Shown here piece by piece: positions 1 to 39,757 of a stretch of 39,757 nucleotides of DNA (its first letter is position 1; every line of letters begins with the position of its first letter). This DNA is from a virus. The stretch lies in the IMG/VR virus record IMGVR_UViG_3300022933_000001, positions 1 to 39,757 of that record. One strand, 5' to 3'. Below the pieces are notes generated by a model. It did not search any database and had not been told where the DNA came from. It worked only from the letters and a program-made list of their open reading frames with translations. Made by a program: the position numbers and the translations under genes.

Positions 1-127
1 CAAAGTCAAACCTTGTAGCGGCTATAAACGAATTAGATAGCGACATGGAGACAGTCGAGAATACGGTGGACTCCCATACGGCAGCAATCCCTGCTAACTT
101 ATCTACAAGATTGTCTGCGCTAGAAGC
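1..127. repeat. contig-end overlap, copy 1 (identical to 39631-39757)
   Basis: Direct base-by-base comparison of both ends. Confidence 0.97.
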
Positions 128-434
128 GAACGCCCCTAAAGCATTCGGTAGATTCACTACAGTAGCCTCCCCTGTCTTACTAGGTACAAGTTACAACGTA
201 ACATCAGTAACTCGTACAGCTACAGGTCAATACTCAGTAGTGTTAGATACAGACTGTACTACAGCCAACTACACAGTTATGCTTTCCTACGAGGATTCAA
301 CTGCTACTATCCAAACTGTAATGGCTAACACCATTGCTACCACAGGATTCAACATTGGGCTACGAGATTCGTCTAACGCTTTCTCTGACGCTTCGGAATC
401 CGTATCCTTTTCTATATTCGAGAACAACGGCTAA
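1..434 (+). CDS. tail fibre protein, C-terminal part (continuation of the ORF that leaves the window at 39757)
   Basis: The frame with codons starting at base 3 is open from base 1. It is the same frame as 37245..39757 once the 127-bp end overlap is collapsed. Stop TAA is at 432-434. The ATG at 45 in the ORF track is an internal Met. Confidence 0.85.
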   Translation, partial: KSNLVAAINELDSDMETVENTVDSHTAAIPANLSTRLSALEANAPKAFGRFTTVASPVLLGTSYNVTSVTRTATGQYSVVLDTDCTTANYTVMLSYEDSTATIQTVMANTIATTGFNIGLRDSSNAFSDASESVSFSIFENNG

Positions 435-438
435 TAAA

Positions 439-915
439 ATGAATATTATAATTAAATATCTAATAGGTCTTTTTGCCCTTTGGCAACCCTCTTTAAACGT
501 GGAGATGCACGACCGTAACAATGATGGAATTGTATCTTCCGTTGGTGGAACGACTAATCATGACTACGCTCATAGCTTTGAGATACAAGGCAGGTGGAGT
601 GCCATCTCTTATACTTATAAAAGGAACGACCCTTATCGCGTGATGGGGGATACGAGTGGTATGGTGCGCTTTGATGTACCTGTTACTACAGGCGAAACAC
701 AAGTGGTATATTTTGTTGCAGATAATACATCATCGCATTATCTTTATTTTCATAGGATAGGGGGAGTGAGTGTACACGAAGGGGTAGGTATTGATTGGAA
801 TACTACATCACTTGACCCCAACGCTACTGCGACTCTATGCCTTGTGGGGATACCTAGCGGCACTCTTTTCTACGATAATGGCGACACCATCTACAAAACC
901 CATCCACGAGAATAA
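439..915 (+). CDS. hypothetical protein (158 aa) with hydrophobic N-terminus, downstream of the fibre gene
   Basis: ATG 439 lies 5 nt after the fibre stop. The N-terminus is MNIIIKYLIGLFALW and the rest looks beta-rich. The upstream part of track ORF 334..915 overlaps the fibre gene out of frame and is not used. Confidence 0.6.
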   Translation: MNIIIKYLIGLFALWQPSLNVEMHDRNNDGIVSSVGGTTNHDYAHSFEIQGRWSAISYTYKRNDPYRVMGDTSGMVRFDVPVTTGETQVVYFVADNTSSHYLYFHRIGGVSVHEGVGIDWNTTSLDPNATATLCLVGIPSGTLFYDNGDTIYKTHPRE

Positions 916-921: not shown

Positions 922-1230
922 ATGTATACACGCCTCCGAATCTACCTTATAGTCCTCTTCCTATTCCCTATAGCGTGCGCATTAACACCCCTTGAGGCGG
1001 GACTTGTTGGAGCTGTTGCAGGTACAACTACCACTATGTTACTTGATAGTGACCCCGATATAATCGTAGGGGATGGAGCTACAGTAGTCCAAGAGCAGGT
1101 GGATAACGCCTATGGACTACTCGCTGTGCTTATCGACAACGCTTGGTCGGTGGCTTTGGTTTGCCTTGTCTTTTGGTTTCTTCCCAATCCGTCACAGATA
1201 CGTCGGCTGTTGAAGAAGAAAGCGAAGTGA
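922..1230 (+). CDS. holin-like small membrane protein (102 aa)
   Basis: Two to three hydrophobic segments are visible (IYLIVLFLFPIACAL; LLAVLIDNAWSVALVCLVFWFL). The C-terminal tail is basic (RRLLKKKAK). It is the last gene of the + strand late operon. Confidence 0.55.
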   Translation: MYTRLRIYLIVLFLFPIACALTPLEAGLVGAVAGTTTTMLLDSDPDIIVGDGATVVQEQVDNAYGLLAVLIDNAWSVALVCLVFWFLPNPSQIRRLLKKKAK

Positions 1231-1555
1231 CCGTGTAGGAGTTTCGTTGTGGTACGTTCAGGAGATAATCAACGAACTTAGGGTTGTCTATAATTATTTG
1301 ATATAGTACCTGACTCAAGACGTACACCTCTTGGTGACTCATCTCTAAATCTAGGAAATCATCCACCGCGTGGACTAGCTCGTGTAACACAGTCACCCTT
1401 TCCTGAACCTCACCGCACTCACTATTTATTGTGATGGTCATTTCATTTGGGTCCCACACGCCGTAGACTTCCTCTTCAGGGTCTACGGGCTTACTGTTAG
1501 AAACAATCACGGGAATAGATACACCGAGAAGCCTTATATGTTTAGGTCTAAACAT
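1130..1555 (-). CDS. small HExxH zinc-metallopeptidase-like protein (141 aa)
   Basis: The motif VLHELVHAVDD is an HExxH signature. The start overlaps the exonuclease stop (ATGTTTAG). It is the last gene of the - strand replication operon. Confidence 0.6.
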   Translation of the reverse strand: MFRPKHIRLLGVSIPVIVSNSKPVDPEEEVYGVWDPNEMTITINSECGEVQERVTVLHELVHAVDDFLDLEMSHQEVYVLSQVLYQIIIDNPKFVDYLLNVPQRNSYTVTSLSSSTADVSVTDWEETKRQGKPKPPTKRCR

Positions 1556-2294
1556 TAGCAGGCTTCCAAAGTTTTAGGGTGTTCGAGCTGAGTATGTAAT
1601 CACTACCTCGTAGTATCCTAGCCAAGCGTGCTTGCACTAAAGCCTCATCATACTCTATACCTTTCGATGCAAAGGTCTCAAGTACAGCTACCCACATATC
1701 CTCTGTAGGAACGTCGAGTATCTTAGCCGCCGTCTTAGGACCAACGGAAGGACATCCTTTGTACCCATCTGTAGAGTCACCACATAATGTTTGGAACATA
1801 TGGTTGTAGTGCGCATACTCAGGTGTTATCTCAGTAATGCCATCTTCAGGATAGTTAGGATTGAAGTGCAACCCCGCTACAGTCTTGAGGTCCTTATCTA
1901 CGGAAATCATTATACCCTCCTCAGAGAGCAAGCCGAGTAAGTCATCAGCCTCTAAGGTATCAACCACCTTAGAATCATAGGTCTTCATCGCCCACTCCTT
2001 CAGAGGGGAGAGGACTATAGGTTTGCGATTCTTCTTACGGTTAGCCTTATACTCAGGGTATATAGTGTTCCTCCAATTATTAGAACCTGAGAAGCAGAGT
2101 AAGATAGGGAAGTCATCAGGGAACTCTGCCCTGATAGCCTCTATCTCCTGCTCAAAGATTTCCTTAGCTGTACCAAGGTCTGAGTGGAGTGTCCATAAGT
2201 CATCATCCCATTCAGTCTCTATCTCAGAGGCGAACGAGGCTTTATAGAGAGGCACGTCGGCATCTATAAGTAAAAGTGGTAGGTCTTCTGTCAT
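1548..2294 (-). CDS. 5'-3' exonuclease, FEN/T7 gp6-like
   Basis: N-terminal acidic PIN-like motif LLIDADVPLYKA, internal ADDLLG and VDKDLKT motifs, and an H3TH-like GDSTDGYKGCPSVGPKTAAKIL. It is positioned after the DNA polymerase, as in T7. Confidence 0.88.
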   Translation of the reverse strand: MTEDLPLLLIDADVPLYKASFASEIETEWDDDLWTLHSDLGTAKEIFEQEIEAIRAEFPDDFPILLCFSGSNNWRNTIYPEYKANRKKNRKPIVLSPLKEWAMKTYDSKVVDTLEADDLLGLLSEEGIMISVDKDLKTVAGLHFNPNYPEDGITEITPEYAHYNHMFQTLCGDSTDGYKGCPSVGPKTAAKILDVPTEDMWVAVLETFASKGIEYDEALVQARLARILRGSDYILSSNTLKLWKPANV

Positions 2295-2605: not shown

Positions 2606-2818
2606 TTAGTTAGTGTAAACCCATATAGGAGTATTCTCTCCTACATAAGCGTGGATGGTATTAAACTCTAGGAACTCTAACGCTTCCTCATAGTCCATCC
2701 CATCCCTATCGTGAAGAACTTGTATAGCTTTATCTACAGAGTAGACAGCGATGTTATCTTTAGTTATACCAAGCATCGCCTTATCAAACCCGTTTGCAAT
2801 TAAAAGTTCTTCTTCCAT
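2606..2818 (-). CDS. hypothetical protein (70 aa)
   Basis: ATG ORF whose start abuts the DNAP stop (1-nt overlap at 2818). Same strand as the operon. Confidence 0.6.
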   Translation of the reverse strand: MEEELLIANGFDKAMLGITKDNIAVYSVDKAIQVLHDRDGMDYEEALEFLEFNTIHAYVGENTPIWVYTN

Positions 2819-4743
2819 TAGTGAGTCTCAGCCCAATTGTTTCCTAGTTTATACTCACCGTCCATCGGACAATGAATGTTGAATTGTTTCCCTGCGTGTA
2901 TCATTGCTGACACCGCAAGCTGTCCGACTCGTTCAGCTTGGTCTTCTCTGACCTCTAGCTGTACTTCGTCGTGGACATGGAGTACTAGCTTAGCATCTAA
3001 TCCCTCCGTGTCAATAGCTTCCATTAGATTAACTGTAGCTTGCTTCATAAGGATTGCTCCTGTTGATTGCATCAGCAGGTTCAGAGCTGAGTGTTCAGAG
3101 CGTACAGGTAGCTTCCTGCCATCTAAACCTCGCAACCACCCACGCTTCTTAGCCACGCCCTTCACCTCTTTGATGAGGTTGTTAAGGGCAGGCAGAGCCC
3201 TTAGAAATCTACCTCGCAAGGCACGTCCTGCTCCCTCACCACGCTCTACTATCTCACCTATCTTTGCATTACCTGCCCCATATAGGAAGGCGTAGATGAA
3301 AGTCTTAGCTTGGTCACGGGTATCTAAACCTGCCGCCCATTGGTTGAGAGTATGGATGTCACCTGATAGTATCTCATTGACATACTCACCCTCATCCCAA
3401 TCATACATATAGTGAGCGAGGCATCGTAACTCTAAGCCGCTCATATCTGCACCCACCATCTTGTAACCTTTCGGTACATCGAAGACAGACCGACAGGCTT
3501 CTCCGAACTCAACACGCACCGCAGGTACTTGACTCATGTTAGGCGTGTTGTGAGTACACCTACCTGATAGCGCACCGTTGTGGTTAATACGTCCGTGCAT
3601 ACGTCCCCCTTTCTCTAGCTTCAACCATGCGTTATCTCCCTCAGCTATCTGACCTATGCGCTTGCATAGCATCATGTATCTAGCGATGAGGATAGCTTCG
3701 GGGTAATCTAAACCATTGAGTATTTCCTCGTCCACGCGGGGCTTACCTGTTGGGGAGTACTCTGTAGGTATCCACTTATGCTTCTTTATGAAAGCTTCAG
3801 CTATCTGCTGTCGGCTATTAGGATTAAAATGTTTCTCCTTAGTCTTCAGAGGTCCTGCTGTTAGAGCCTGTCTGATGTTGTAAGGGGCTTCGCTCTTAAT
3901 CCTATACTTGTTTCCCTCAGCGTCAAGCCAATAAGCTACCGTCTTAGTCTCAATAGTCTCAGGAGGAAACACCTTTGCAATTTCCTTTAAGACCTTATCC
4001 TTCTCACCTAAGAGTGTGCCGTAAAGAGAGGCACAGGATTCTGTATTGAAACCTACCCCGTTGCGTTCCATCTGCGCTAACGCAGTAGCAAACTTATGCT
4101 CTAGGTCTAGACTACGCTTGGTCATCTCCTCCCCCTCTAGCTTGTGGGCTAGGTGAAGAGTGACGATGGTATCTTGTATACAATACTCGCCCATCTCTAG
4201 GGAGTACTCCGTCCAATCAGTATCCTCATGGCTGAACTCTCCCTTCAGAGAGCCGAGCCTATAGCCCCAAGCCTTGAGGGAGTGAGAGCCACGATACTTC
4301 TTAGGTATCCTCTCAGCCATGTAGTCTGTATCCATCAGGTTAGGGAAAGCCATACGACTCATCACTAAGGTATCTCGCACCCTAGCCTGTGTCTTCCAAT
4401 TAGGATACAGCTTCTTTATCACAGGGATGTCAAAGCCTATGATGTTATGCCCTACAATAGTCTCTGCATTAGAGAGGTGGTGTAGTGCCATAGGTATGTC
4501 ATCCTGTGCGAATAAGGAAGAGTCTCCGTTCGGTGTTGTTAGTGAGATGCAATGTATCTTAGTACACTCATCTAGTAATCCATCAGTCTCCATGTCGAAG
4601 ATGAAGGTATCTTTTGTTTGTTCTTTTAATTGTCCCATTGTTTCTATTAGGTCAGGTCTTGGTTGTTTGTAATCCATGAGGTCCATCTTAAAATTAGGAC
4701 GAAACCTCTTATGAGTATCGCGGAGCATTAGGGTTATGTTCAT
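2818..4743 (-). CDS. family A DNA polymerase with 3'-5' exonuclease domain (T7 gp5-like, 641 aa)
   Basis: Exo motifs FDMETDGL, HNIIGFDIPV and YCIQDT. Pol motifs DMSGLELRCLAH (A), RDQAKTFIYAFLYGAG (B) and HVHDEVQ (C). Confidence 0.95.
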   Translation of the reverse strand: MNITLMLRDTHKRFRPNFKMDLMDYKQPRPDLIETMGQLKEQTKDTFIFDMETDGLLDECTKIHCISLTTPNGDSSLFAQDDIPMALHHLSNAETIVGHNIIGFDIPVIKKLYPNWKTQARVRDTLVMSRMAFPNLMDTDYMAERIPKKYRGSHSLKAWGYRLGSLKGEFSHEDTDWTEYSLEMGEYCIQDTIVTLHLAHKLEGEEMTKRSLDLEHKFATALAQMERNGVGFNTESCASLYGTLLGEKDKVLKEIAKVFPPETIETKTVAYWLDAEGNKYRIKSEAPYNIRQALTAGPLKTKEKHFNPNSRQQIAEAFIKKHKWIPTEYSPTGKPRVDEEILNGLDYPEAILIARYMMLCKRIGQIAEGDNAWLKLEKGGRMHGRINHNGALSGRCTHNTPNMSQVPAVRVEFGEACRSVFDVPKGYKMVGADMSGLELRCLAHYMYDWDEGEYVNEILSGDIHTLNQWAAGLDTRDQAKTFIYAFLYGAGNAKIGEIVERGEGAGRALRGRFLRALPALNNLIKEVKGVAKKRGWLRGLDGRKLPVRSEHSALNLLMQSTGAILMKQATVNLMEAIDTEGLDAKLVLHVHDEVQLEVREDQAERVGQLAVSAMIHAGKQFNIHCPMDGEYKLGNNWAETH

Positions 4744-6377
4744 CGTGCGTAAGCCGCCTTCTCTTTATTGATGAGGGATACCGAAGCTGTCTCCTTCAGT
4801 CTCCCTGTTTCTTTGTTGTACTTAAGGGTGCAGTTTATCCCTGTCTCCCCTGAGTATCTGTTCTTCAGTACCCTAACGGTAGTTACGTCAGCCTCATCTT
4901 CAGACTGTTGGTCACGTTCAAAGCCTATAACTAAGTCACTGAGTTGCCCAAGGCTTGCGCTTCCCCTAAGTTGAGCCAAGCTAGTCTTCGCTCCTTCTTC
5001 GTGCGCCTTACCTTCGGGTCGTTTGAGATGCGACACGAGGATGAGAGCTATGCCTAGTTCCTCTACAAGAGAGCGGAGCTTGGTCATTATGTTGTCAATG
5101 CGCCTACGCTCATCACCATCTTCATACCCTGATACCATGATAGATATGTGGTCAAGGAATACATACTCTACGTCGAGAGCCTTCACCATGTATCTTATCT
5201 TACCTAGTAGGTGGTCGGAGTCCATCGAACCGAAGTGGTCATACAGTACACAGTTACCTGTACCCATCGTAGCTTGGAATGCCTCGTGTAATCTCTCCAT
5301 CCCTACATCAGTACCATGTATATGAATAGGTAGGTTGAGTGAGATACCCATAATGCCCTTAGCAGTACGCGCCACGCTCTCTTCGAGTGCGATGTAGCCT
5401 ACCTTCTTGTCATTGATTATCAGGTGGTGTGCTACCTCTCGGCAGATGCTAGACTTGCCGATGCCTGTGCCTGATGTGAGCGTGACTAACTCACCCTTGC
5501 GGATGCCGTAAGTCTTATCGTTCAACCCTGCCCATGGATACGGGAAGGATTCTGAATCGTCCACCTCTGACACCTGTTCCCATAGGTCTTCACCTAAGAC
5601 AACACCATCAGGTCTGAAAGGTTTAGCACCCCATTGGGCTGACACTAGCTCACTACCTCGACCTGCCACTAACATCTCGTTAGCGTCCTTCAAGGGTAGC
5701 GTAGCTATCTTAGCCTTACCTACTGAGAGCATAAGGCTACACTTCTCCGCCGCCTCGCGTCCTGCTTGGTCGTTATCAAACATGAACACTACAGACTCGA
5801 ATGTCTCTAGCCACTCAAGGCTACGAGCCACAGCTTTATGCGCACCCTGCGCACCGTTAGGCACGGAGACTACAGCCCACTTGTTGCCTGTCTGTTGGCT
5901 GACTGATAGAGCATCTATCTCTCCCTCAGTTACGGTGACCATCTTGCCACCACCTCGCCATAGGTGTTCACCATACAGCCCCATCTTCTTGGAGTTGCCT
6001 AGTATCTGAAAGGATTTGTCAGGCATCCGTAGCTTCTGTGCTATCGGTACACCTGCATCGTTGCGGTACGTCGCTACCTGCATAGGCTTACCATGATGTA
6101 GTGTTACACCATAGTCCCATTTCTTACAGGTCTCTTCGTTTAGCCCACGGTTAGGTATGGCTTGGTATTCTCTGTCTATTAAAGACTTAGAGACTTCGGG
6201 TTGCTTCTCAGAAGCTACTCCTGATTCTTGCTCGTGGTAACTACAGCTAAAGCAGTAGCCATGCCCGTCATCATATCTTGCAAGAGCGTCTGAGGATTCG
6301 CAACTTGGGCAGGCTTCATGTCCTGTAAAGTTACTGTCTGAATCAAGACGTGAGTTGTTGGTGTTGTTGTTGTCCAT
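4740..6377 (-). CDS. bifunctional primase-helicase (T7 gp4-like, 545 aa)
   Basis: Cys4 zinc ribbon CPSCESSD..GYCFSC. TOPRIM motifs VTEGEIDALS and FDNDQAG. SF4 helicase Walker A SGTGIGKSS, Walker B VFLDHIS, plus LRGSASLGQ. Confidence 0.95.
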   Translation of the reverse strand: MDNNNTNNSRLDSDSNFTGHEACPSCESSDALARYDDGHGYCFSCSYHEQESGVASEKQPEVSKSLIDREYQAIPNRGLNEETCKKWDYGVTLHHGKPMQVATYRNDAGVPIAQKLRMPDKSFQILGNSKKMGLYGEHLWRGGGKMVTVTEGEIDALSVSQQTGNKWAVVSVPNGAQGAHKAVARSLEWLETFESVVFMFDNDQAGREAAEKCSLMLSVGKAKIATLPLKDANEMLVAGRGSELVSAQWGAKPFRPDGVVLGEDLWEQVSEVDDSESFPYPWAGLNDKTYGIRKGELVTLTSGTGIGKSSICREVAHHLIINDKKVGYIALEESVARTAKGIMGISLNLPIHIHGTDVGMERLHEAFQATMGTGNCVLYDHFGSMDSDHLLGKIRYMVKALDVEYVFLDHISIMVSGYEDGDERRRIDNIMTKLRSLVEELGIALILVSHLKRPEGKAHEEGAKTSLAQLRGSASLGQLSDLVIGFERDQQSEDEADVTTVRVLKNRYSGETGINCTLKYNKETGRLKETASVSLINKEKAAYAR

Positions 6378-6715
6378 CGTTTTGTTTCTATTGATGCTAT
6401 GATTCTCTTATCGTCCTCGATTACCCCGTGCGTTTGAAGCGCATCCCATAGAGCCTTGTTGTAATTGTCAAGGTCAGGGTTAGGGTAGTCGAGTTTCGTA
6501 GTCTTCGGTCGTTGCACTTCAAAGAGTTGTGCAATGAGTAGAGAACTATTAAGAGGTAAAATACCTTCAGCCTTTGCTTCCTTGATTACTTGCGCTATGG
6601 TTACATGGATGTTCTTTCGATACTCCGTGTATTTCTTACCATAATAAACCCCCCATTTACTGACTCGGGGTCTACTCGCAGGCACAGGGTTTTGTTTAAG
6701 CTGAAGGTATAACAT
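6215..6715 (-). CDS. rusA: RusA-family Holliday junction resolvase with an unusually long C-terminal extension
   Basis: RusA-like pattern PASRPRV..., NPDLDNYNKALWDAL and VIEDDKRI. The last ~54 codons overlap the primase-helicase start out of frame. Confidence 0.7.
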   Translation of the reverse strand: MLYLQLKQNPVPASRPRVSKWGVYYGKKYTEYRKNIHVTIAQVIKEAKAEGILPLNSSLLIAQLFEVQRPKTTKLDYPNPDLDNYNKALWDALQTHGVIEDDKRIIASIETKRWTTTTPTTHVLIQTVTLQDMKPAQVANPQTLLQDMMTGMATALAVVTTSKNQE

Positions 6716-6956: not shown

Positions 6957-7559
6957 TTAGAAGTTAAAGCTGTCGCCTCCTTCGACTTCGCTAAAACTCT
7001 CAGCACCCGCAGGTACTACCGTCTTAGCTGTGCCTTCTTCTACAACATCGAAGGCATCTGCTGATGCTTCTTCGCCGTAATAGTTAGCGTCTATAATCTG
7101 AGCCGACACGATTTCAAACGTCACTCCGACCTTCGGGTTACCGTAAGGTTTCATGCCGATTGACATCCTTAGCTTTGTTCCTTTACCTAGCGAACCTTCA
7201 GGTGTGAAGGGCTGTAGGTCAGCACCAAACAGCACAGGTGGTTTGTTCTCCCACGTTGAGCCATCCTTTCTGATACCACTAGCTTTACGCTTGCACTTAA
7301 AGACGAGCTTACCTGTTTTGTTTCCTTCCTCATCGACGTGTTCTTTAATCGGTAGAGGGTTTGTTGCTTTGGAAGCACCGAAGTGTTCGCGTGTCTCTGT
7401 GTAAAAAGCCTCAGCATCTGCAACAAAAGATTCTGCATCTGCCTTATCCACGAGTAAGTCACAGTACCACTGAGGGTCGAACTTTGTATCGGGTGCTTCG
7501 TTTAAGGCACACCATGATGATGTACCAATTGGGGTTGTAATTTTTTTGGTCTTTACCAT
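6957..7559 (-). CDS. single-stranded DNA-binding protein, T7 gp2.5-like (200 aa)
   Basis: It lies between the RNAP and the nuclease/primase genes. The size fits gp2.5, and the acidic C-terminal tail ends in an aromatic residue (EVEGGDSFNF), as in gp2.5. Confidence 0.65.
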   Translation of the reverse strand: MVKTKKITTPIGTSSWCALNEAPDTKFDPQWYCDLLVDKADAESFVADAEAFYTETREHFGASKATNPLPIKEHVDEEGNKTGKLVFKCKRKASGIRKDGSTWENKPPVLFGADLQPFTPEGSLGKGTKLRMSIGMKPYGNPKVGVTFEIVSAQIIDANYYGEEASADAFDVVEEGTAKTVVPAGAESFSEVEGGDSFNF

Positions 7560-10918: not shown

Positions 10919-11124
10919 GCGTTCTCCTGTCGTGCTAAGACTCTATTGTATAGCTCGACGGGTGTTACCCCACAAAGCTCTACAATAGCAACATCGCACA
11001 TACCGTCTTTCAATAGGCGAGACATTACTACATCTTTTGGCATCGTATCCTCAGCCATCGCTGTGATAAACTCGCACCACATCTGTAGCAATGTATCCTT
11101 GTCTATGTTGAAGGTGTTAGTCAT
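10912..11124 (-). CDS. hypothetical early protein (70 aa)
   Basis: ATG ORF whose start overlaps the upstream stop by 1 nt. Operon strand. Confidence 0.6.
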   Translation of the reverse strand: MTNTFNIDKDTLLQMWCEFITAMAEDTMPKDVVMSRLLKDGMCDVAIVELCGVTPVELYNRVLARQENAS

Positions 11125-11626: not shown

Positions 11627-11634
11627 GGTTCTCT

Positions 11635-30554: not shown

Positions 30555-30556
30555 AA

Positions 30557-33500
30557 ATGGCTGACAAATTAAATTTACAAGACCTACAAGACCCACAAGA
30601 CCCACAAGACCCTAAAAAGAAAAAGAGGGTGGGTGCTGTGGATAGGGTGTTTCCTATTGAAGAGCCTATAAAGACACACGCTCAGGTACAGCACGAAGAA
30701 GCACAAGTCAAAATACAAGACAGGACAGGATTCGTAGGAACCCTACAGGAGGGGGTAGAGTTTATGGCGATGAAACTCCCTACTACTTTGACGGGATTAG
30801 GGATTATGAAAATAGCATCCCCTAGTTTTACCCCTGACAATTCTTATCGAATGAGTGAAGATTTCATGCGCTCAATATCGCTAACAGTACCAAGAGAACA
30901 CCAACAATATATACTAGCTTCTGAATCAGAGGAGGAAGCTAAGTGGCGTTATACTGACGTTCAAGGACGGCTTAAAAACGAGGCGCATTTGGCTGAGTAT
31001 GGGTTTGGTGGAAATGTAGTGGGGCTACTCACAGACCTCCTTGACCCTTCCATGTTAGCTACTTTTGGGGTTGGAGTTAAAGTGGCAAATGTTGCAATGG
31101 GAGCTAAGACTTTGACTGCCGCAGAGATGGCACAGGCGCGGGGGATTTTTAATAGTAAGCTACGGGCTGCAGGGATAACGGAAGCTCAACTCAGAGCTGA
31201 TTTAGAAGCAGTAATTAAAGCAACAGGTAGCGGTGCTAAAACAGTACAGCTATCCGATGAATATTATAAAGTTATAGCAGAGGCTAGAGCAGCAGGCATG
31301 AGATATCTCTCACGCCCCACCTTGACTGAAAGCGTTGTTAGGACTGCGGCAGGTTTTGGAGCAGTAGAGACAGCTAGGGCAAGCTTAAATCCTTTAATAG
31401 ATGAGGAAGATGTTTTATATGCAATTGCTGCGGGAGCTGTAGCGGGCGGAGGTTTATTTCACCCCCTCGGACGCGCTTGGAGGGCAATAAAACAAGGTCC
31501 TTTACCTCCTCCTGAATATATAGGAGGGGTAGGCAAAGGTCCTTGGAGACCTAGACTAGGCGGAGGTTATGATGGACCTGCGGGACCTAAAGGCGGAGGC
31601 GGAAGCCCTAGCATCATACCCCCATCTCCTGACGGTAAGATGCCTACTCCTGAGATGTTCGGGTTACCTGCACCTCACCCTAAAATGCGTATCCCTACGC
31701 ACGTCCCCCTTGAAGGACCTAGTGGACCTAGTGGACCTAGCGGGAGACTGCCACAACTAAACGCGCCGCAACCTGCCTCTACTCATGCCTTTGTTATACC
31801 TCCAAAAGGAGGAGGAGAGTCTGTCATTGTGCCTATTGGAGAGACAGACCCACGACCTATGTTCAAGTCATGGCATGTACTAAACTCACTACATCCTGAT
31901 ACTAAAATTGATGGGGTACTGAAGGCTCTTGAGAAAGCACAGGTATCTAAGTCAGAGATTGCTTACGTTATGAAATCGGGGCAGACGAAGGAGCAGTTAG
32001 AGGCTTTAGCGTTTTTAGATAATTGGGAGAGTTTCTCGACGGGTTATGAGACCAACGCGCTTGATATGAACGAATGGGTTGAGAGAGGTTTTACGGAAAC
32101 CATCCGTGGAGACCGCAATTTCTCTCATAAGCAATTCGCAGAACTTTATAGCGACTATATAGGAGATGATTATTATATAAAGGCGTGGGATATAGGGGTG
32201 TTGCAGAGGAAAGCTCTTAATTTACTTGACGAGAATACCAATATAGCTATAGTGAAGGCTAAAGTCATTGTGGAGGAGAAGTATGACGCCCTCCGTGAAG
32301 CTCATATAGCAGAAACTATATCTATATTAAATGACGCAAAGGCAGGGTTAGATGCGGAATATCACGACGCTTTCCCATTACTAGAAAGATTAGTTGAGTA
32401 TTCTAAGACAAGAGTATCCTATGAAGATTCGGCACTCCGCCTTTTTGAGAAATTAAGTCATGTTCAAAGTTATGACTCATTCCTTGAGGACGTAGATATA
32501 ATTGCGCATCGCTTTTCACCCCTGCTACTCATGAGAAACTCTGACTTTCTCATGATGTTCAAGGCGGTGCAGGAGTTAGGTCATATCCATAATACTATAC
32601 TTGATAGGCTTGCTAATGTATCTGATGGAAATACTTACAGCGTTACCCATACTGAACACTCGCTTGGATACCTCCGTGGACTAGAAATATTCGATATGAC
32701 GGAGTTAGCAGAGAAACACGGAAATCTTTTGCAGATAGACGCAGCTGCTGCAAGGATGTTTTATAAGGCTAAACTACTAAATGAGGTAGGTCCTGCACCT
32801 GAGGCTCCCCTAGAGAAACTTAGAAAAGTTATAGGAGGCACAAGAGAACTAACAGCTCAGAAGCTAGTGAAGAACTATGCGCTTCCTATGATTACTACTG
32901 AGTCTTTTTTAAGTCATATAAAACCCCCCATTACAGAAGAAGTAAAGAACTTGAAGGATAGTTTATTGTTCTTGAAGAGGGAAAGAAATAGACTACTAGA
33001 TTCGATAAAGGAGGAAGAACTAGAGATAAAACTTGCGGAGGAAAAGATACGATACGGGGAGAGCCAACGCGCAAACCCTGATGAAGATACTACCGAAGTC
33101 CTCATGGAAGCATTTGGCACATCCGCCCAAGAAGCATTAGATATTGCAGAGCAGAGATTATCGGTACAGCAAGATAATTTAGCCCATGTAGCGCTAGAAA
33201 TAGAAGATACCATAGCCATGATAAGTAGTGCGTCGATGGTGGGCTTCGGCAATATCCCATACAAAGGTGCAAAGACTTCTGACGTAGTTCCGTATAGTGA
33301 TTCTAAATATAAAAGCCTACCTGTGAATGTTACTGTCATTAGTTCTCCTTCTATTGTTAATTGGAGGAGGCTGCACGATAGTATATTAGGAGCGGGCGGT
33401 TTGGGTTGGGTGCGATGGAGTGCTACCGATGGGGTAGGTATAAAAACCGAAGTATTTGAGAATCAAAACGACCAAACGAAAGGAGAACATACTAAAAAGG

Positions 33501-36500
33501 CAGAAATGGACCCTGAAAGAAAGATGTTAGTTGCTTCACTAGCGTATCAAAGTGCCTATGCAAACATCATAGAGATGGTAAGGTTTGGGGGGCGTGAGAT
33601 AAAGTTTGCAAGTGCTGCGGAAATTCGTGCAAAATCATCAGGCTCTAACCCATCGGATTGGCTTTACGAGGATAAACTTCCCACATTCTACAGAAGATTA
33701 GCTGAGGCTTATGGCTTGAAGTATACTGAGACAGAGGTAATAAGAAACCCGTCTGATACTTATGCTACTTTTAATAAAATTAGAACAGAATTTAGTAGAA
33801 AAGGATTAAAGGAAGAGGCAGAGAAGTACCTCGATTTAATCAGAAGGCAGCAGTACGAACAAGCAGGCGATTGGGCTTATACTAAAATGGGCGGGGAAGC
33901 GTCTGAGTATATGGTGGGTGATTTAACTAAAGAGGCTGCGACTATCGGTAAGAACTATCAGTCTTTCTTAAAGACTAATAAGTACCCACAACGTATCCTC
34001 CGCTTTACGGAGTCAGAAGCTAAGAGGTTCTTAGATAACGCACCTAGATTCCTTAATCCGTTCGCCGCCCCGAAGAGTGTTGTTCAGAAACCTGCGAAGG
34101 CTCTAACCCCTGATGAGCTTACTATCCGTGAACTTGAACGCCTGCTTCCTGCGGAGGCTTTGGATGCTATTGGGTTCAATGTGAAGTTCCCTCGTGAGAT
34201 TATGGAGCAGGCGATGTTCCAAACAGTCGGTGCGGATTATATCGTACCGTTGAGAGATGACATGGGGATGGCGGAACTTAAAGAGATTGTCGCACGAGAG
34301 AATCTTGGAGTTACTCACAGGTCTATGAAGGGTTTAAGGAAAAGGATAACTCTTGCACGAGTTCAGAGACAGGCGGCTGTAACTCAACCTGACCTACGTC
34401 CTGTTATAGTGCCTCAAAGCGTTGCTGATAACTTCCCTGAGATTACTGAAGAAACAGGATTCGTTATCGTTCCTGACGGTGGAATCATGGCTCCAACAGG
34501 CGGAGGAGAAAAGCCACCTACTGTACCACCTACAGCCGACGGCACTACACCGCCTCCTTCTGACCCTGAACCAACACCCGAACCTCTACCTTTTGAGGAT
34601 GTATTAAAACTCATGTATGAGGTAATACCTGCGGCGGGTATGGAGAATATGAGAGGAGGTGCTAAATTTGCTTACAGTCTTTCATATCTTTTAGGTAGAA
34701 GTGACGGACCTGCATCTCTAAGATTCTTACACCACTTCGCTCTTCAGACTCTAATCTCCCCTGTAGATTTACAGGGTGAGAATGTTCCTGTAGGAATAGC
34801 CGCTGATATGAAGGCGGATTCGTTTACTAGAGCTGACTTATCGAAAGTCGGAGAGGAAGTTCAAGGTCTATTTGATTCTTGGTACACAGAAAATAAACAC
34901 CGTTTCCCTTTTATAGGAGGGGAGAAGGCTGTAAGACTACGCAATGCTCAAGAAGACTTCTACCGTCAGGTGTTTGAAGGACTACACGGTAAACCTATTA
35001 CTGACCTCCGTGTACAGTTATCCGTAGATGCTTTCAATAAAGCTAACGCACGGAACGCAAAGAAGATACATGAGAGTGGACTTTCAGAAACTTTATTGGA
35101 ATCTGAAGGATACGCACCGCACTCATGGCTTGTAAAGCAGGTAGGTAATAACATTAGATTGTATGGTCTTGACGTAATGACTTCATTATTTCGTGATGGT
35201 CTTCTAAAACTTAACCCTCACTTTACTGAGAGACAGGCTACACTAATAGCTAAATCATTACTAATAAACGTAAACACACGGGGTTTAGATGTAGATTATG
35301 AAAGCACTAGCGGTGTAGGCGAGGATAGCTTCGCTGCTTTAGAGCGTAAACTCTCCGCTGTGCCTGATATAACCGCAGAAGAAATAGCTGAGATACTAAG
35401 CGTAACTAAAAAGGTTCCAAATAAACCTTCTTTCTTACGCAACCGAACAGAGTTAGACATCTTTACTTCACAGGCTATGCGGAATAAAGAGACAGGCGAG
35501 ATGGACACAGTATCTATTATAGATATGTTGAATACCAACGCCGCTTCTCTGTTGGTCCACCACCAACGCCAACTTAACGGTCAGCTTATGTACCGTGAGA
35601 TGATGACAGAGTTGGCTAAGTTCTTAGGGAAGCCCGAAGCTACTTGGGAAGACTTGAAGGAGTTGGCTAAGTTTGAGATGTTACAACGTGGAGAGAATAA
35701 CGCGGAGACTATGGAGTTAATCGAACACGTCCAACGGATTGTTCTCGGTATACCCATCGACCCCGCACAAGGTAAGTGGGGAGAGTATGCTCGGATACTA
35801 CAGAAGTTCTCTCTCGCCGCCTTTGGTGCTACCTTCGGTATTGCCGCATTAGCTGAAGGAGGACAAGCGGTAGCTATGTCTTCTTTGGAATCAATGCAAC
35901 GGATGTTCCCTGAAATGCAAGCCATTATGATGGATGTCTTAGCAGGTAACATGACTAAGAGCGAACTAGCTAGAGAGCTACAGAACTACGCAGGAATAGC
36001 CCATCCTAAATTCGGTAGAGGGACTAACATGAACCGTGAGTTTGACCACATTGCTGAGGACGTGCAAGGCATGGTCGAGTCTCTTCTAGATTTCTTAGGT
36101 GAGAAGGCATTATCTTTCGGTGGTCTACTCGCTTTAGATACAATGCAAAGGCTGTGGTCAGCTATCTTATTTACTGACAATCTAGTAAACGGTGTACTTG
36201 CAGGTGGGATGCCATACTCTAGGATACACTTGGCGCAGATAGGACTAACTCCTGACATGGCGTATAGAGTTGTAGCTATGATTAACAAGCATGGTAAACT
36301 TTATGATGCCGCCAATGGTGGTAAGAAGATAGGACGATGCCACCCTGAGAATTGGGAAGATATAGAAGCGGCGGAAGCCTTCCGTTGGGCTTTGAACTTA
36401 CACTCTCGAAGGACCATCCACGAGGCGATGAAGGGTCAGTACCACCACAAGTTCCAAGGTCAGATAGGTAGATTGTTTTGGCAGTTCCGTACCTTTATGC

Positions 36501-37024
36501 TATCAGCCTATGAAGGTCAAGCGGTCACCGCAGTACAAGGAATGCAACACGGGGATAAGAGAGCCGCATTTGGTTTACTTACCAACTCTATGTTTGCAGG
36601 TCTTTCCTATATAGCAGGAGTTTTAGTGCGCTACGGACACGATGAAGAGAAGGTGAAGAAGTATCTAACTATGGAGCAGATAGCAAAAGGTATGTTAGTT
36701 AAGTCAGGTTGGTTTACAATAGGTATGCCTATCCTTGATTCAGTACAGAGATTCAGAGGTGAAAGCCCTCTGTTCTCCTACGCCCACACTAATACAGGAC
36801 TTGCATCTAGTGCGCTGATGGGTTCACCTTCAGTAGCTATCGCTGACGCTTTGGCGGGTGTTGTTAAGAGTGTAGTAGCTCCTGTAACCAACCCCAACTA
36901 TAAATATAGTAAACAAGATTGGAGAAATATAGAAACGCTCGCTCCTCTTCACGGGCTAATAGGATGGGGAAACTCTTTGAAAATGATAGGCGATAGACTA
37001 CCCGAAAAATCTAAAGGAAACTAA
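30557..37024 (+). CDS. giant internal core/ejection protein, gp16-like (2155 aa)
   Basis: It is the last internal-protein gene before the fibre. The ORF is uninterrupted for 6468 nt. No SLT catalytic motif is visible at the N-terminus. Confidence 0.7.
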   Translation: MADKLNLQDLQDPQDPQDPKKKKRVGAVDRVFPIEEPIKTHAQVQHEEAQVKIQDRTGFVGTLQEGVEFMAMKLPTTLTGLGIMKIASPSFTPDNSYRMSEDFMRSISLTVPREHQQYILASESEEEAKWRYTDVQGRLKNEAHLAEYGFGGNVVGLLTDLLDPSMLATFGVGVKVANVAMGAKTLTAAEMAQARGIFNSKLRAAGITEAQLRADLEAVIKATGSGAKTVQLSDEYYKVIAEARAAGMRYLSRPTLTESVVRTAAGFGAVETARASLNPLIDEEDVLYAIAAGAVAGGGLFHPLGRAWRAIKQGPLPPPEYIGGVGKGPWRPRLGGGYDGPAGPKGGGGSPSIIPPSPDGKMPTPEMFGLPAPHPKMRIPTHVPLEGPSGPSGPSGRLPQLNAPQPASTHAFVIPPKGGGESVIVPIGETDPRPMFKSWHVLNSLHPDTKIDGVLKALEKAQVSKSEIAYVMKSGQTKEQLEALAFLDNWESFSTGYETNALDMNEWVERGFTETIRGDRNFSHKQFAELYSDYIGDDYYIKAWDIGVLQRKALNLLDENTNIAIVKAKVIVEEKYDALREAHIAETISILNDAKAGLDAEYHDAFPLLERLVEYSKTRVSYEDSALRLFEKLSHVQSYDSFLEDVDIIAHRFSPLLLMRNSDFLMMFKAVQELGHIHNTILDRLANVSDGNTYSVTHTEHSLGYLRGLEIFDMTELAEKHGNLLQIDAAAARMFYKAKLLNEVGPAPEAPLEKLRKVIGGTRELTAQKLVKNYALPMITTESFLSHIKPPITEEVKNLKDSLLFLKRERNRLLDSIKEEELEIKLAEEKIRYGESQRANPDEDTTEVLMEAFGTSAQEALDIAEQRLSVQQDNLAHVALEIEDTIAMISSASMVGFGNIPYKGAKTSDVVPYSDSKYKSLPVNVTVISSPSIVNWRRLHDSILGAGGLGWVRWSATDGVGIKTEVFENQNDQTKGEHTKKAEMDPERKMLVASLAYQSAYANIIEMVRFGGREIKFASAAEIRAKSSGSNPSDWLYEDKLPTFYRRLAEAYGLKYTETEVIRNPSDTYATFNKIRTEFSRKGLKEEAEKYLDLIRRQQYEQAGDWAYTKMGGEASEYMVGDLTKEAATIGKNYQSFLKTNKYPQRILRFTESEAKRFLDNAPRFLNPFAAPKSVVQKPAKALTPDELTIRELERLLPAEALDAIGFNVKFPREIMEQAMFQTVGADYIVPLRDDMGMAELKEIVARENLGVTHRSMKGLRKRITLARVQRQAAVTQPDLRPVIVPQSVADNFPEITEETGFVIVPDGGIMAPTGGGEKPPTVPPTADGTTPPPSDPEPTPEPLPFEDVLKLMYEVIPAAGMENMRGGAKFAYSLSYLLGRSDGPASLRFLHHFALQTLISPVDLQGENVPVGIAADMKADSFTRADLSKVGEEVQGLFDSWYTENKHRFPFIGGEKAVRLRNAQEDFYRQVFEGLHGKPITDLRVQLSVDAFNKANARNAKKIHESGLSETLLESEGYAPHSWLVKQVGNNIRLYGLDVMTSLFRDGLLKLNPHFTERQATLIAKSLLINVNTRGLDVDYESTSGVGEDSFAALERKLSAVPDITAEEIAEILSVTKKVPNKPSFLRNRTELDIFTSQAMRNKETGEMDTVSIIDMLNTNAASLLVHHQRQLNGQLMYREMMTELAKFLGKPEATWEDLKELAKFEMLQRGENNAETMELIEHVQRIVLGIPIDPAQGKWGEYARILQKFSLAAFGATFGIAALAEGGQAVAMSSLESMQRMFPEMQAIMMDVLAGNMTKSELARELQNYAGIAHPKFGRGTNMNREFDHIAEDVQGMVESLLDFLGEKALSFGGLLALDTMQRLWSAILFTDNLVNGVLAGGMPYSRIHLAQIGLTPDMAYRVVAMINKHGKLYDAANGGKKIGRCHPENWEDIEAAEAFRWALNLHSRRTIHEAMKGQYHHKFQGQIGRLFWQFRTFMLSAYEGQAVTAVQGMQHGDKRAAFGLLTNSMFAGLSYIAGVLVRYGHDEEKVKKYLTMEQIAKGMLVKSGWFTIGMPILDSVQRFRGESPLFSYAHTNTGLASSALMGSPSVAIADALAGVVKSVVAPVTNPNYKYSKQDWRNIETLAPLHGLIGWGNSLKMIGDRLPEKSKGN
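30575..30610 (+). repeat. 9-bp tandem repeat x4 at the 5' end of the gp16-like gene
   Basis: TTACAAGAC CTACAAGAC CCACAAGAC CCACAAGAC, encoding LQD LQD PQD PQD. Confidence 0.9.
31715..31741 (+). repeat. 9-bp tandem repeat x3 (GPS GPS GPS) in the first Pro/Gly-rich linker of the gp16-like gene
   Basis: GGACCTAGT GGACCTAGT GGACCTAGC. Confidence 0.9.
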
Positions 37025-37245
37025 TGACTACCCACGACCAAGACTTACTCGTAGCTATCGGCAGACTCGAAGGCAAGATGGATGCTTTGATAGCTATCAC
37101 CAACGCTCACAATGAGATGATTCAGAAACATGATGAACGTCTTCGTGAGTTAGAGACTTCACGCTCTGCCCTGATAGGTGCAGTAGCTATCCTTTCCACA
37201 GCAATTAGTGCCGCCGTAGCGTGGCTCTCAGCAAACTCAGTATAA
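37024..37245 (+). CDS. small coiled-coil protein with C-terminal transmembrane segment (73 aa)
   Basis: Start and stop overlap the flanking genes (TAATG at both ends). The C-terminus is LIGAVAILSTAISAAVAWL. Confidence 0.55.
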   Translation: MTTHDQDLLVAIGRLEGKMDALIAITNAHNEMIQKHDERLRELETSRSALIGAVAILSTAISAAVAWLSANSV

Positions 37246-39757
37246 TGCCATACGATAGACATGATAATGAAAAGATAGACCGTAAGGTTATGGACTGTAG
37301 AGCCAAACTTGGAGGTACTAATATTGTTGTAGGTGGGAACACTGATGCTATAGCTATAAACAAAACTAAGCTAGACCTAATGACGGTAACACAGGCTGTG
37401 AACCTTGATGACATGGAGTCTGACATAGGAGCGGTTAGCGGTTTAACAACCGATGAAAAAGATAATCTAGTAGGGGCTGTAAATGAGCTAGACACTAACA
37501 CTAATGACTGTCAAGCAGATGCTACTAACGCCTCGACTTTTGCAACTACTGCCCTCCTTGCTATAGGAACTACGAGTAATCTCCCAAACCCCCCTGCATC
37601 GCTAGTCGAGGAGATAAATACCCTAGACGTAGCAGTAGATTCAAACACAACTAAATTAGATGGTATTGAAGCAAGTGCAACTGCTGACCAAACAGACGCT
37701 GAAATTAGAACTGCAGTAGAAGCTGCAACTGATTCAAACGTGTTCACTGATGCTGACCATACTAAACTAAATGCTATTGAAGCAGGTGCTGATGTGACAG
37801 ACTCAACAAATGTTGTAGCTGCTTTAACAGCAGGAGAGAATGTAACTATATCTGCAGGTGGAACTATAGCTTCCACAGATACAGACACAACTTATTCATC
37901 TAGTGATTTTACACATGATGACTTAATAGGTTTTGTAGCTGATGAACATATAGATTGGACAGGTGCTTCAGCAGGAACTATCCACTCTTCTAACTATACT
38001 GATACAGATACAACTTATACAAGTTCAAATTTTACACATGATGACTTAACAGGTTTTGTAGCTGATAAACATATTGATTGGACATTAACTAACATTAAGA
38101 ATATCCACTCTTCTAACTATACTGATACAGTTTATGACTCAACTGATATTGATGCAGCAGTAGATTTAAACACAGCAAAGGTAACCTATCCTTCTGCTGA
38201 CTCTACTAAGGTGGGGTATATCAGCGTTACGGAAGCTATAAACTTAGATACCTTACGCGATGACGTAGATAGTAATGATGCAGATATTGCAACTAATGTT
38301 ACGAATATCAGCAGTAACGCTGCAGACATTCTCACGCTACAAGGTAACGTAAATAGCAACGATGCAGATATTGCAAATAATGTTACGAATATCAGCAATA
38401 ACGATGCAGACATAGCCGCCTTACAGTCTGCTGTAACTAGCAACGATGCAGATATTGCAAATAATGTTACGAATATCAGCAATAACGATGCAGACATAGC
38501 CGCCTTACAGTCTGCTGTAACTAGCAACGATACAGATATTGCAACTAATGTTACAAACATAACTACCAACTCCGATGCCATCGGAACACTTTCATCATTA
38601 GCCACGAGTGCTAAAACCAACTTAGTGGGGGCGGTTAATGAGCTACATACAGAATTAGGTAGCGAGACAACAACGTCCTTAGTTTTATCTGGTAACATCC
38701 TCACGTTTACTAATCAGGATGGTGTAACGAACACTATATCCTTAGCCCACTACTTAGATGACACAGACACAAATACCTTTGTGTCGTCAGGGTCGGTAAA
38801 TAGCGCAGGGCTAGTCACTTTCATTATGAGCGACGCTTCGACATTTACAGTAAACTTAGAGTCTTTATTAGACACTACAGTTACTGTAGTTGATAACTTG
38901 ATAAGTACGAGTACCGTAGATGCTTTGAGTGCTGGTAGGGGCAAGGTATTAAAGGATGGTCTTGATACTCTCACCACCACTAAAGTAGCTACATCGTCTA
39001 ACCAAGCGTTAGTTTCCGCAACTGATGCTATGACTATTAGTGACCATACTATTACTTTAAATAGAGCAGATGGAACTACGGACACAGTTACAGTTCCTGA
39101 TAATGACACCACTTATACGGTAGGCGATGGTGGGCTAACTGAAATTAACTTTACGTCAGCGGATAATACTAAACTAGACGGTATAGCAGCAGGTGCTACA
39201 GTAGACCAAAGTGCTGCAGAAATAAAAACTCTTTTAGAGGATGGGATTAATAGTGTTCATTATGTAGATGGAAGTATAGATACTATTCACATAGGTGATG
39301 ACCAAGTAACAGTAGACAAACTGGCGAACTCAATCAATACAACTATAGCCGCCAATACAGCTAAAGACACTAACGTCACAACCGATTTAAGCGTAAGCAG
39401 AGATGGAACCAAGTTGGTTGTAGTTTCGAGTGATGGAGCAAACGCAACACTACCCCTAGTTGATACAAATAATTGGGGTGTGATGTCGGATGAAATGTTC
39501 GACGAGCATACAACCAATAATGCTAAGACAGGCATTTCGCCTGTACAGGCAGCAGCTATTACAAATAATACTACTGCTATAAGTGGTAACGATACAGACA
39601 TAGGAACACTCGCTAGTTTAACGACTACAACAAAGTCAAACCTTGTAGCGGCTATAAACGAATTAGATAGCGACATGGAGACAGTCGAGAATACGGTGGA
39701 CTCCCATACGGCAGCAATCCCTGCTAACTTATCTACAAGATTGTCTGCGCTAGAAGC
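37245..39757 (+). CDS. tail fibre protein, N-terminal 837 codons (ORF continues through the circular junction to 434; ~939 aa in total)
   Basis: My manual translation from ATG 37245 shows no stop up to the window end. The motifs NLVGAVNEL and TKLDGIEAGA recur, and internal tandem repeats are present. The ORF is absent from the track because it has no stop inside the window. Confidence 0.85.
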   Translation, partial: MPYDRHDNEKIDRKVMDCRAKLGGTNIVVGGNTDAIAINKTKLDLMTVTQAVNLDDMESDIGAVSGLTTDEKDNLVGAVNELDTNTNDCQADATNASTFATTALLAIGTTSNLPNPPASLVEEINTLDVAVDSNTTKLDGIEASATADQTDAEIRTAVEAATDSNVFTDADHTKLNAIEAGADVTDSTNVVAALTAGENVTISAGGTIASTDTDTTYSSSDFTHDDLIGFVADEHIDWTGASAGTIHSSNYTDTDTTYTSSNFTHDDLTGFVADKHIDWTLTNIKNIHSSNYTDTVYDSTDIDAAVDLNTAKVTYPSADSTKVGYISVTEAINLDTLRDDVDSNDADIATNVTNISSNAADILTLQGNVNSNDADIANNVTNISNNDADIAALQSAVTSNDADIANNVTNISNNDADIAALQSAVTSNDTDIATNVTNITTNSDAIGTLSSLATSAKTNLVGAVNELHTELGSETTTSLVLSGNILTFTNQDGVTNTISLAHYLDDTDTNTFVSSGSVNSAGLVTFIMSDASTFTVNLESLLDTTVTVVDNLISTSTVDALSAGRGKVLKDGLDTLTTTKVATSSNQALVSATDAMTISDHTITLNRADGTTDTVTVPDNDTTYTVGDGGLTEINFTSADNTKLDGIAAGATVDQSAAEIKTLLEDGINSVHYVDGSIDTIHIGDDQVTVDKLANSINTTIAANTAKDTNVTTDLSVSRDGTKLVVVSSDGANATLPLVDTNNWGVMSDEMFDEHTTNNAKTGISPVQAAAITNNTTAISGNDTDIGTLASLTTTTKSNLVAAINELDSDMETVENTVDSHTAAIPANLSTRLSALE
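37875..38120 (+). repeat. 123-bp (41-codon) tandem duplication inside the fibre gene
   Basis: TDTDTTYSSSDFTHDDLIGFVADEHIDWT...IHSSNY is followed by TDTDTTYTSSNFTHDDLTGFVADKHIDWT...IHSSNY. Confidence 0.85.
38271..38522 (+). repeat. 84-bp (28-codon) tandem repeat x3 inside the fibre gene; units 2 and 3 are identical
   Basis: Units lie at 38271-38354 (diverged), 38355-38438 and 38439-38522 (identical). A further degenerate unit follows. They encode SNDADIANNVTNISNNDADIAALQSAVT. Confidence 0.9.
39631..39757. repeat. contig-end overlap, copy 2 (identical to 1-127)
   Basis: Direct base-by-base comparison of both ends. Confidence 0.97.

Follow-up and report, generated by a model that had tools for sequence, protein, structure and literature searches.

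Phages related to T7 carry their own RNA polymerase (RNAP) and read their genes in one direction, two features that serve as criteria for the Autographiviridae (PMC9145550, PMC8143317). In T7 itself, gene order and direction are tied to transcription-driven genome entry, and rearrangements are costly and slow to recover (PMC3737178). Here we describe a 39,757-nucleotide stretch of viral DNA (IMG/VR record IMGVR_UViG_3300022933_000001, analysed over its whole length and referred to hereafter as the window) that holds a T7-type gene set in which the virion genes and the holin gene are encoded on the strand opposite to the early, replication and terminase genes. We call the boundary between this flipped block and the replication arm junction A, that between the block and the genes for the small and large terminase subunits (terS and terL) junction B, and the usual one-strand arrangement canonical.

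The nearest isolate by terL is Roseobacter phage CRP-227 (OR420746.1; HTVC019P/CRP-type Autographiviridae), whose terL and portal proteins are 59% and 51% identical to those of the window. CRP-227 and T7 have genomes of ~40 kb and share with the window their gene content and the order of genes within each arm, but the portal-to-holin block of the window lies on the opposite strand, whereas a single strand of CRP-227 encodes all 49 of its genes (MarR regulator, integrase and RNAP come first, the exonuclease, portal and fibre genes follow further on, and terS and terL close the series). The window further differs from CRP-227 and T7 in carrying RusA in place of endonuclease I and in a phosphoesterase that heads the structural block; it has no integrase, where CRP-227 has one between the MarR regulator and RNAP, and its RNAP is only ~32% identical to that of any isolate.

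Among phages at large a bidirectional layout is nothing unusual, and in some cases it occurs together with T7-family polymerases. Coliphage N4 (Schitoviridae) is a podophage with T7-family single-subunit RNAPs in which host sigma-70 RNAP transcribes the late (virion and lysis) genes, whose polarity is opposite to that of the early and middle ones (PMC4496689), a logic that matches the one we propose below for the window from sigma-70-type promoters at junction B. N4, however, has a 70-kb genome, a giant virion-packaged RNAP, a heterodimeric RNAPII and the N4SSB activator, whereas the gene set of the window is T7-type; against a virion RNAP of ~3500 amino acids (aa) and a genome of ~70 kb in Schitoviridae, the largest window protein has 2155 aa, and a search of it for a virion RNAP domain gave no RNAP family match and no PDB match. 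Xp10, Colwellia phage 9A and Shewanella phage KASIA resemble the window in pairing a T7-like RNAP with oppositely oriented arms (PMC9145550), and the very long late operon of Xp10 is transcribed by host RNAP helped by p7 (PMC4513864). Xp10-like phages nevertheless have siphovirus structural modules and lambda-like late operons, whereas the window has the T7 gp8-gp17 set, and PHROG and Pfam scans of the window returned no match to a tape measure or major tail protein. A p7 homologue was not seen in the window either, though no search aimed at it was made. The gene-order mutants of T7 built by Endy, Springman, Cecchini et al., which demonstrate by experiment the tie to entry and the cost of rearrangement (PMC3737178), are laboratory translocations that leave all genes on one strand; the window represents a natural, stable inversion of comparable scale.

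A T7-type gene set divided between two strands

Bases 1-127 of the window are identical to bases 39631-39757, indicating a circular assembly with a unique length of 39,630 bp, a size that fits the Autographiviridae, whose linear genomes measure ~40 kb and carry direct terminal repeats. The contig break falls inside the fibre gene, and on the 39,630-bp circle this open reading frame (ORF) runs uninterrupted for 939 aa, from 37245 through the wrap to 434. The intact frame and the identical ends make reading across the wrap legitimate, and bear out the initial annotation, which had followed the + strand unit through the ends of the contig. The window represents an uncultivated marine podophage of the T7 type, whose genome is complete and whose coding is split between ~16.5 kb on the − strand and ~23 kb on the + strand (~23.15 kb for the flipped block). 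Scans of the window for tRNA genes and Rfam families found none, and megablast of the whole window against GenBank phages gave no match.

Gene identities were taken from PHROG and Pfam profile scans of the window proteins, which upheld the gene names, coordinates and strands first assigned (Table 1). Within both arms the gene order is that of T7: the + strand arm follows gp8 to gp17.5, and comparison with CRP-227 and T7 shows identical order within the block, as had been claimed for gp8-gp17. The description of the block as an inverted virion/lysis unit stands in part only; the virion genes and the holin gene are on the + strand, but the endolysin gene (10287-10730, −) stays outside the block. 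In T7 the lysozyme gene belongs to class II and the holin gene follows the fibre gene, and the lysozyme/holin split of the window parallels this arrangement.

Set against the traits of the Autographiviridae, the window encodes its own single-subunit T7-type RNAP, a morphogenesis set in T7 order (portal, scaffold, capsid, tubular proteins A and B, internal core proteins, fibre, terS and terL, with a PHROG match for each gene) and a T7-type replication set (primase-helicase, family A DNA polymerase, gp2.5 single-stranded-DNA-binding protein and gp6 exonuclease). The RNAP is full-length, its homologues carry Pfam RPOL_N and RNA_pol, and the invariant residues are present across the clade alignment. 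A unidirectional gene arrangement, in contrast, is absent from the window and from 21 related contigs; the genome is T7-like in content yet departs from the family in layout.

These 21 contigs are independent and public (drawn from IMG/VR, TARA/ENA, Logan, JGI and NCBI, the last including JAAENA010000310.1, JAANSZ011778296.1 and BOPT01004642.1), span RNAP identities of 43-99% and carry junction A, junction B or both. Junction A is present in 12 contigs (L001, L002, L005-L010 and L172-L175), junction B in 12, and both lie on one contig in three cases (L005/L023, L007 and L010). Searching IMG/VR with the RNAP recovered six contigs from six samples (RNAP ~78% identical) that jointly reproduce both junctions, and searching it with the portal protein recovered twelve further loci in which terL(−)/terS(−) adjoin phosphoesterase(+)/portal(+). 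Among 5.8 billion proteins, the RNAP belongs to a discrete clade at 43-99% identity, below which the next matches drop to 35%. In clade contigs at 99, 65, 51, 44 and 43% RNAP identity, the exonuclease arm meets opposite-strand virion genes in every case, and wherever these contigs are long enough terS-terL diverge from the phosphoesterase gene. Both junctions are found again in contigs that were assembled independently and that come from different samples and databases; the flip is not a mis-join but a lineage trait of an undescribed marine clade.

The distribution of the two layouts follows relatedness. Within the IMG/VR portal set, loci with a portal identity of at least 70% always have the flipped layout (12 loci), whereas those at 60% or below are always canonical (30/30 informative loci), with RNAP, DNA polymerase and exonuclease genes co-stranded with, and immediately upstream of, portal. 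In neighbour-joining trees of portal and terL all flipped genomes, the distant L007 and L010 included, form one clade. Its sisters are canonical genomes: the portal tree puts L025-L029 in this place, the terL tree CRP-227 and, next, L011. Canonical sisters have portal straight after exonuclease on one strand and terS-terL after the fibre gene; the outgroup contig L011 carries terS-terL, then a lysogeny/early region and RNAP as in the window, with the gene before terS co-oriented. Monophyly of the flipped genomes and the canonical state of their sisters support a derived inversion of the virion block. The best reading is one ancestral inversion; breaking the canonical map behind the exonuclease region and ahead of terS, it yields the map of the window. 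Since T7 order is exact both inside and outside the block, a single inversion explains everything. AT skew changes sign with the coding strand, from negative over 1-17 kb to positive over 17-39 kb, which argues that the layout is old.

On a circular or concatemeric map, inverting the 23-kb block is the same as inverting the complementary 16.5 kb, and the inversion is therefore "in situ", as first described, only if the physical ends lie within the 14055-15768 gap. From the organization of T7-type genomes and the promoter cluster found in this gap, we infer that the genome ends, or a terminal repeat, are probably located there. Bringing these lines together, we consider it likely, at well above even confidence though short of certainty, that the window is a complete T7-type genome with one ancestral and fixed virion-plus-holin inversion, in which junction B would act as a late hub with a contribution from host RNAP and the distal ~25 kb would enter the cell independently of transcription.

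We found no isolate or paper with the same arrangement. Searches by tblastn of 50,697 GenBank phage records (RNAP, terL and portal queries) returned no RNAP above 32% identity, and among the top-listed records shared by more than one of the three match lists the genes were co-stranded in every one. Of 80 genome or metagenome-assembled genome loci with a T7-like RNAP, 27 also contain portal or terL, and strand is concordant in 27/27. A prophage search for the host across 185,579 species genomes gave no clade member (best RNAP identity 33%), and its loci are the ones that served above as layout controls. The host is probably Gram-negative and marine; the bin of one relative is gammaproteobacterial. 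A literature search on inverted or opposite-strand T7-like genomes found nothing relevant and no paper describing the layout; a 2025 survey covering 1253 genomes of marine Autographiviridae describes their synteny without any mention of orientation (PMC12361551). Relatives of the window were already in public metagenome data, unremarked, and the sequence family itself is therefore not new data.

Junction architecture and models of late transcription

At junction A (1130-1230) the convergent holin and HExxH protein genes overlap tail-to-tail by 101 bp. A search for an intrinsic terminator at this junction found none in the window and nothing consistent in two relatives.

Junction B has promoter-like elements facing both ways: TTGATA-17-TATAAT on the + strand (17632-17660), facing the structural block, and TGnTATACT on the − strand (17685-17680), facing terS. 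Across six sequences with diverged spacers, the two −10 elements are the only conserved bases of the junction; TATAAT (TATACT in one of the six) abuts the terS start codon, TGnTATACT is perfectly conserved, and closer relatives keep a −35 element (TTGATA or TTGAGA) 17 bp upstream of the structural-block −10. Both elements are correctly oriented and plausibly spaced from the start codons. The predicted start sites (~17667 on the + strand, ~17673 on the − strand) overlap by a few bases, such that the two promoters would compete.

Sigma-70-like sites also occur on the − strand of the early region and gap, at 14637-14609 (TTGACA-17-TAGGAT, in the gap), 13534-13506 (TTGACA-17-TATACT) and 11496-11469 (TTGACA-16-TAAGAT), with further ones at ~12791 (TTGACA) and, in the gap, at ~14828-14800; a near-consensus site precedes the exonuclease gene (2336-2309), as it does in two relatives. 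The early-region promoters, like that of the exonuclease gene, are orientation-consistent, and some are overlapped by palindromes. As a cluster (~14.8-11.4 kb) they fit a scheme in which host RNAP would carry out early transcription toward the phage RNAP gene.

Several repeated elements lie in the same region. Palindromes resembling GGGCATTATAATGCCC are found in the early region and gap (12815-12830, 14857-14872, 14884-14901 and 15500-15515) and are conserved in L001, L003-L005 and L019, while the palindrome CAAGATATATATCTTG (13530-13547 and 12787-12804) overlaps the −35 element of two early promoters. The MarR-like regulator (9943-10287) keeps 96-99% identity even in relatives with an RNAP of only ~78% identity, and is a candidate binder of both operator-like palindromes. 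The gap further holds, at 15160-15313, a 26-nt unit containing the palindrome TTGAGACTCAA in three direct copies and one inverted copy; the unit is likewise present in four copies in L019. Possible roles of the cluster are those of an origin, a signal for packaging or an array of sites for a regulator.

Late transcription opposing early and middle transcription, as originally put forward for this genome, would follow from the orientation of the genes. In the scheme that we propose, host RNAP would start at the sigma-70-type cluster (~14.8-11.4 kb) and read the early genes and the phage RNAP gene, after which the replication arm would be transcribed in the same direction. Junction B would then serve as a bidirectional late hub, directing transcription leftwards into terS-terL and rightwards into the phosphoesterase gene, portal to fibre and holin. 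The two conserved, overlapping sigma-70-type promoters at this junction make host RNAP a likely contributor to late transcription, as in N4 and Xp10, and the phage RNAP may add late transcription from unrecognised promoters. At junction A, the late unit would meet the replication arm head-on and, with no terminator between them, mutual antisense RNA would result.

The consequences of this layout for genome entry can be extrapolated from T7, in which most of the genome is internalised by transcription and gp16 mutants give full transcription-independent entry (PMC3737178). If the early end enters first, any late promoter would arrive after the DNA that needs pulling in. Co-directional transcription could then account for the uptake of no more than the first ~14 kb, which make up the early/replication arm, and the remaining ~25 kb would enter transcription-independently, for example by ejection-protein-driven translocation.

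A number of points weigh against this joint reading. The trees behind the single inversion are neighbour-joining trees, midpoint-rooted and without support values, and the placement of the genome ends within 14055-15768 is an analogy with T7-type genomes. In L007 and L010, both distant members, the intergenic region next to terS measures only 18 bp and its promoter footprints are less clear. Counts of sigma-70-like sites across the genome are not above shuffled expectation; the promoter argument draws on position, orientation and conservation. A repeated T7-type promoter was found on neither strand: pairwise comparison of 18-mers among intergenic regions, a scan of the genome with 16-mers taken from all upstream regions, in which up to 3 mismatches were allowed, and use of specific motifs from junction B and the capsid leader returned only ribosome-binding sites, operator-like palindromes and chance-level matches. 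As no T7-type promoter motif has been recognised, the phage RNAP could carry all late transcription. Finally, transcription-coupled entry has been demonstrated in T7, not in marine relatives, and the layout may conflict with nothing here.

The strongest competing account keeps the same fixed inversion but gives it classical late expression, with the phage RNAP reading both late units and the sigma-70-like elements of junction B incidental or minor. In every T7-like phage studied the structural genes are read by the phage RNAP, as is well established for T7 (text of PMC4496689), and the full length of the window RNAP, its invariant residues across the clade and the chance-level frequency of sigma-70-like sites all suit this account. 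T7 has host-type promoters that are considered minor, and those of junction B could be likewise. Such a model would also find a possible phage promoter in a strongly conserved 45-nt block upstream of the capsid gene (21526-21568). What it leaves unexplained is the failure to find a repeated phage-promoter motif on either strand, and the restriction of conservation at junction B to TATAAT and TGnTATACT, correctly oriented and spaced. As a complete account we place it somewhat short of an even chance; on the sub-question of which polymerase is involved, a phage-RNAP-only late model and host-RNAP involvement are about as likely.

The block ahead of the capsid gene is an observation in its own right. 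It is near-invariant although the capsid proteins of the relatives are only 53-59% identical, and it includes a 4-bp hairpin with a UACG/UGCG loop, in which L017 shows one compensatory change (T-A to C-G). The block may act as a structured leader, be a site of processing or belong to a phage promoter.

A bolder extension of the late-hub scheme would place N4-like logic on a T7 backbone. Here the phage RNAP would serve the early-to-middle arm only, host sigma-70 RNAP would read the virion and packaging genes through mutually exclusive divergent promoters, antisense transcription at the holin/replication junction would set timing and ~60% of the genome would enter without transcription, possibly linked to the enlarged 2155-aa gp16-like protein. 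We regard this full combination as doubtful, with perhaps a modest chance of being right.

Alternative origins of the layout

Returning to the single derived inversion, its main competitor holds that the two-direction layout is ancestral, that unidirectional T7-like genomes are derived and that the block was never flipped in this lineage. Oppositely oriented arms do occur in many podophages and in N4, Xp10, Colwellia phage 9A and Shewanella phage KASIA, and midpoint rooting without support values leaves this ordering of events some room. The flipped clade is nonetheless nested among canonical genomes in both trees, a unidirectional layout is shared by the 30 informative IMG/VR loci outside the clade, the 27 genome loci that were informative and the nearest isolates, and an ancestral two-direction state would require identical re-inversion in many lineages; we judge it improbable.

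Far less probable still is a programmed, reversible inversion, in which a recombinase would flip the 23-kb block and both orientations would coexist in the population. A tyrosine integrase beside the RNAP gene in distant clade members could be cited in its favour. No inverted repeats link 1130-1230 with 17651-17707, however, and PHROG/Pfam scans of the window found no invertase or recombinase family besides RusA; the window thus shows neither the border repeats nor the cognate invertase of Gin/Hin/Cin-type invertible segments. All 21 related contigs have the same orientation, the ORFs overlap at junction A and the skew is equilibrated. The absence of border repeats and of an invertase, together with one orientation in all relatives, argues that the inversion is fixed rather than switchable.

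An assembly artefact (a chimera or mis-oriented segment), for which a single metagenomic contig with assembler-type 127-bp overlapping ends might have spoken, is effectively refuted by the reproduction of the junctions in related contigs that come not from one assembly but from various pipelines, by nucleotide skew that tracks the coding strand throughout the block, by the ORF overlap at junction A and by the conserved sequence of junction B.

Gene map, variation within the lineage and implications

Table 1. Features of the window (39,757 nucleotides), with the profile evidence for each assignment where given
Feature	Position	Strand	Basis
Terminal overlap, equals 39631-39757	1-127	.	identical ends
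193-aa ORF without assigned function	334-915	+	
Holin-like protein (class II), 102 aa, two transmembrane segments, basic C-terminus; last flipped gene	922-1230	+	
HExxH (metalloprotease-like) protein, 141 aa; last gene of replication arm	1130-1555	-	
5'-3' exonuclease, T7 gp6-like	1548-2294	-	PHROG/Pfam
Family A DNA polymerase	2818-4743	-	PHROG/Pfam
T7-type primase-helicase	4740-6377	-	PHROG/Pfam
RusA-like Holliday junction resolvase	6215-6715	-	PHROG/Pfam
gp2.5-like single-stranded-DNA-binding protein	6957-7559	-	PHROG/Pfam
Single-subunit T7-type RNA polymerase, 798 aa	7578-9974	-	phrog_414 E=1e-193, full length
Winged helix-turn-helix/MarR-like transcriptional regulator, 114 aa, overlaps RNAP gene start	9943-10287	-	
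Destabilase-type lysozyme with N-terminal transmembrane segment (SAR-endolysin-like), outside flipped block	10287-10730	-	
Early region of small ORFs	10912-14054	-	
Non-coding gap, 1.7 kb, terL to early genes	14055-15768	.	
Terminase large subunit, T7 gp19-like	15769-17433	-	PHROG/Pfam
Terminase small subunit, 72 aa from ATG at 17651	17433-17651	-	
Junction B, divergent control region, 55 bp	17652-17706	.	
Calcineurin-like (Mre11/SbcD-type) phosphoesterase; first gene of flipped block	17707-18720	+	
Portal, T7 gp8-like	19197-20756	+	PHROG/Pfam
Scaffolding protein	20686-21504	+	PHROG/Pfam
Major capsid protein	21625-22650	+	PHROG/Pfam
Tail tubular protein A (gp11)	23081-23695	+	PHROG/Pfam
Tail tubular protein B (gp12)	23695-26925	+	PHROG/Pfam
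Four internal virion/ejection proteins (159, 271, 781 and 2155 aa)	26922-37024	+	
73-aa coiled-coil protein with C-terminal transmembrane segment	37024-37245	+	
Tail fibre, 939 aa on circle	37245-39757 then 128-434 (1-127 duplicate 39631-39757)	+	

The phosphoesterase gene is located exactly at the inversion breakpoint. Among the loci examined it is restricted to the flipped clade; it is absent from T7-like isolates, and its closest phage homologues (~32%) are found in actinophages rather than in T7-like phages. Just ahead of portal, a 75-aa proline-rich ORF (18970-19197, +) has a hydrophobic segment with Cys at its N terminus and is a tentative candidate for an Rz1-like outer-membrane spanin, without a family match.

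Of the 2155-aa protein (30557-37024, +), only the C-terminal 780 aa match gp16-type profiles; searches with the N-terminal ~1370 aa gave no Pfam, PDB or homologue match, and searches with the 781-aa internal protein were likewise without a match. The protein at the equivalent position of CRP-227 has 1303 aa (annotated as hypothetical), and the relatives' versions of the gp16-like protein carry precomputed DUF3293 and SAP matches. In some genomes gp11/gp12 are enlarged, with ORFs of 992 aa and 1006 aa in L015.

The 939-aa fibre gene is a presence/absence polymorphism in the flipped clade: L174, with an RNAP 99% identical to that of the window, holds no more than a 201-aa gene in the interval from the 73-aa gene to holin (11382-12516), and L005 (18560-20267) and L006 (6117-7164) have 0.5-1.2 kb at the fibre position. 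Internal tandem repeats of the fibre gene (37626-38560) comprise 123-bp units at 37875-38130 and three to four 84-bp units at 38242-38560, and encode repeated segments of the SNDADIANNVTNIS type. The neighbouring 73-aa coiled-coil protein is 87% identical in L007/L008 (L007 19877-20089), against 35-68% for most other proteins, which points to unusually strong constraint or recent exchange. Distant flipped members carry a tyrosine integrase gene directly upstream of RNAP (L007 9148-10008; L010 9019-10008) and, in the interval that separates terL from the early genes, a GP88/Dam cassette of opposite orientation (L007 4905-5822), and these gene contents suggest that there are temperate relatives within the flipped clade.

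One-strand gene order counts as a hallmark of the T7-like phages. In T7 there is a mechanistic link between this order, genome entry and early/middle/late timing, and laboratory rearrangements stay unfit for thousands of generations. That an old, diversified natural lineage keeps the T7 gene set with 60% of it read in the opposite direction implies that the one-strand constraint is not universal. The divergent promoter pair and the terminator-less convergent junction are candidate regulatory parts, and strand uniformity is unusable as a filter for recognising or classifying RNAP-encoding podophages in metagenomes. The flipped lineage provides a natural experiment on how general transcription-coupled entry and RNAP-driven late expression are in the relatives of T7.

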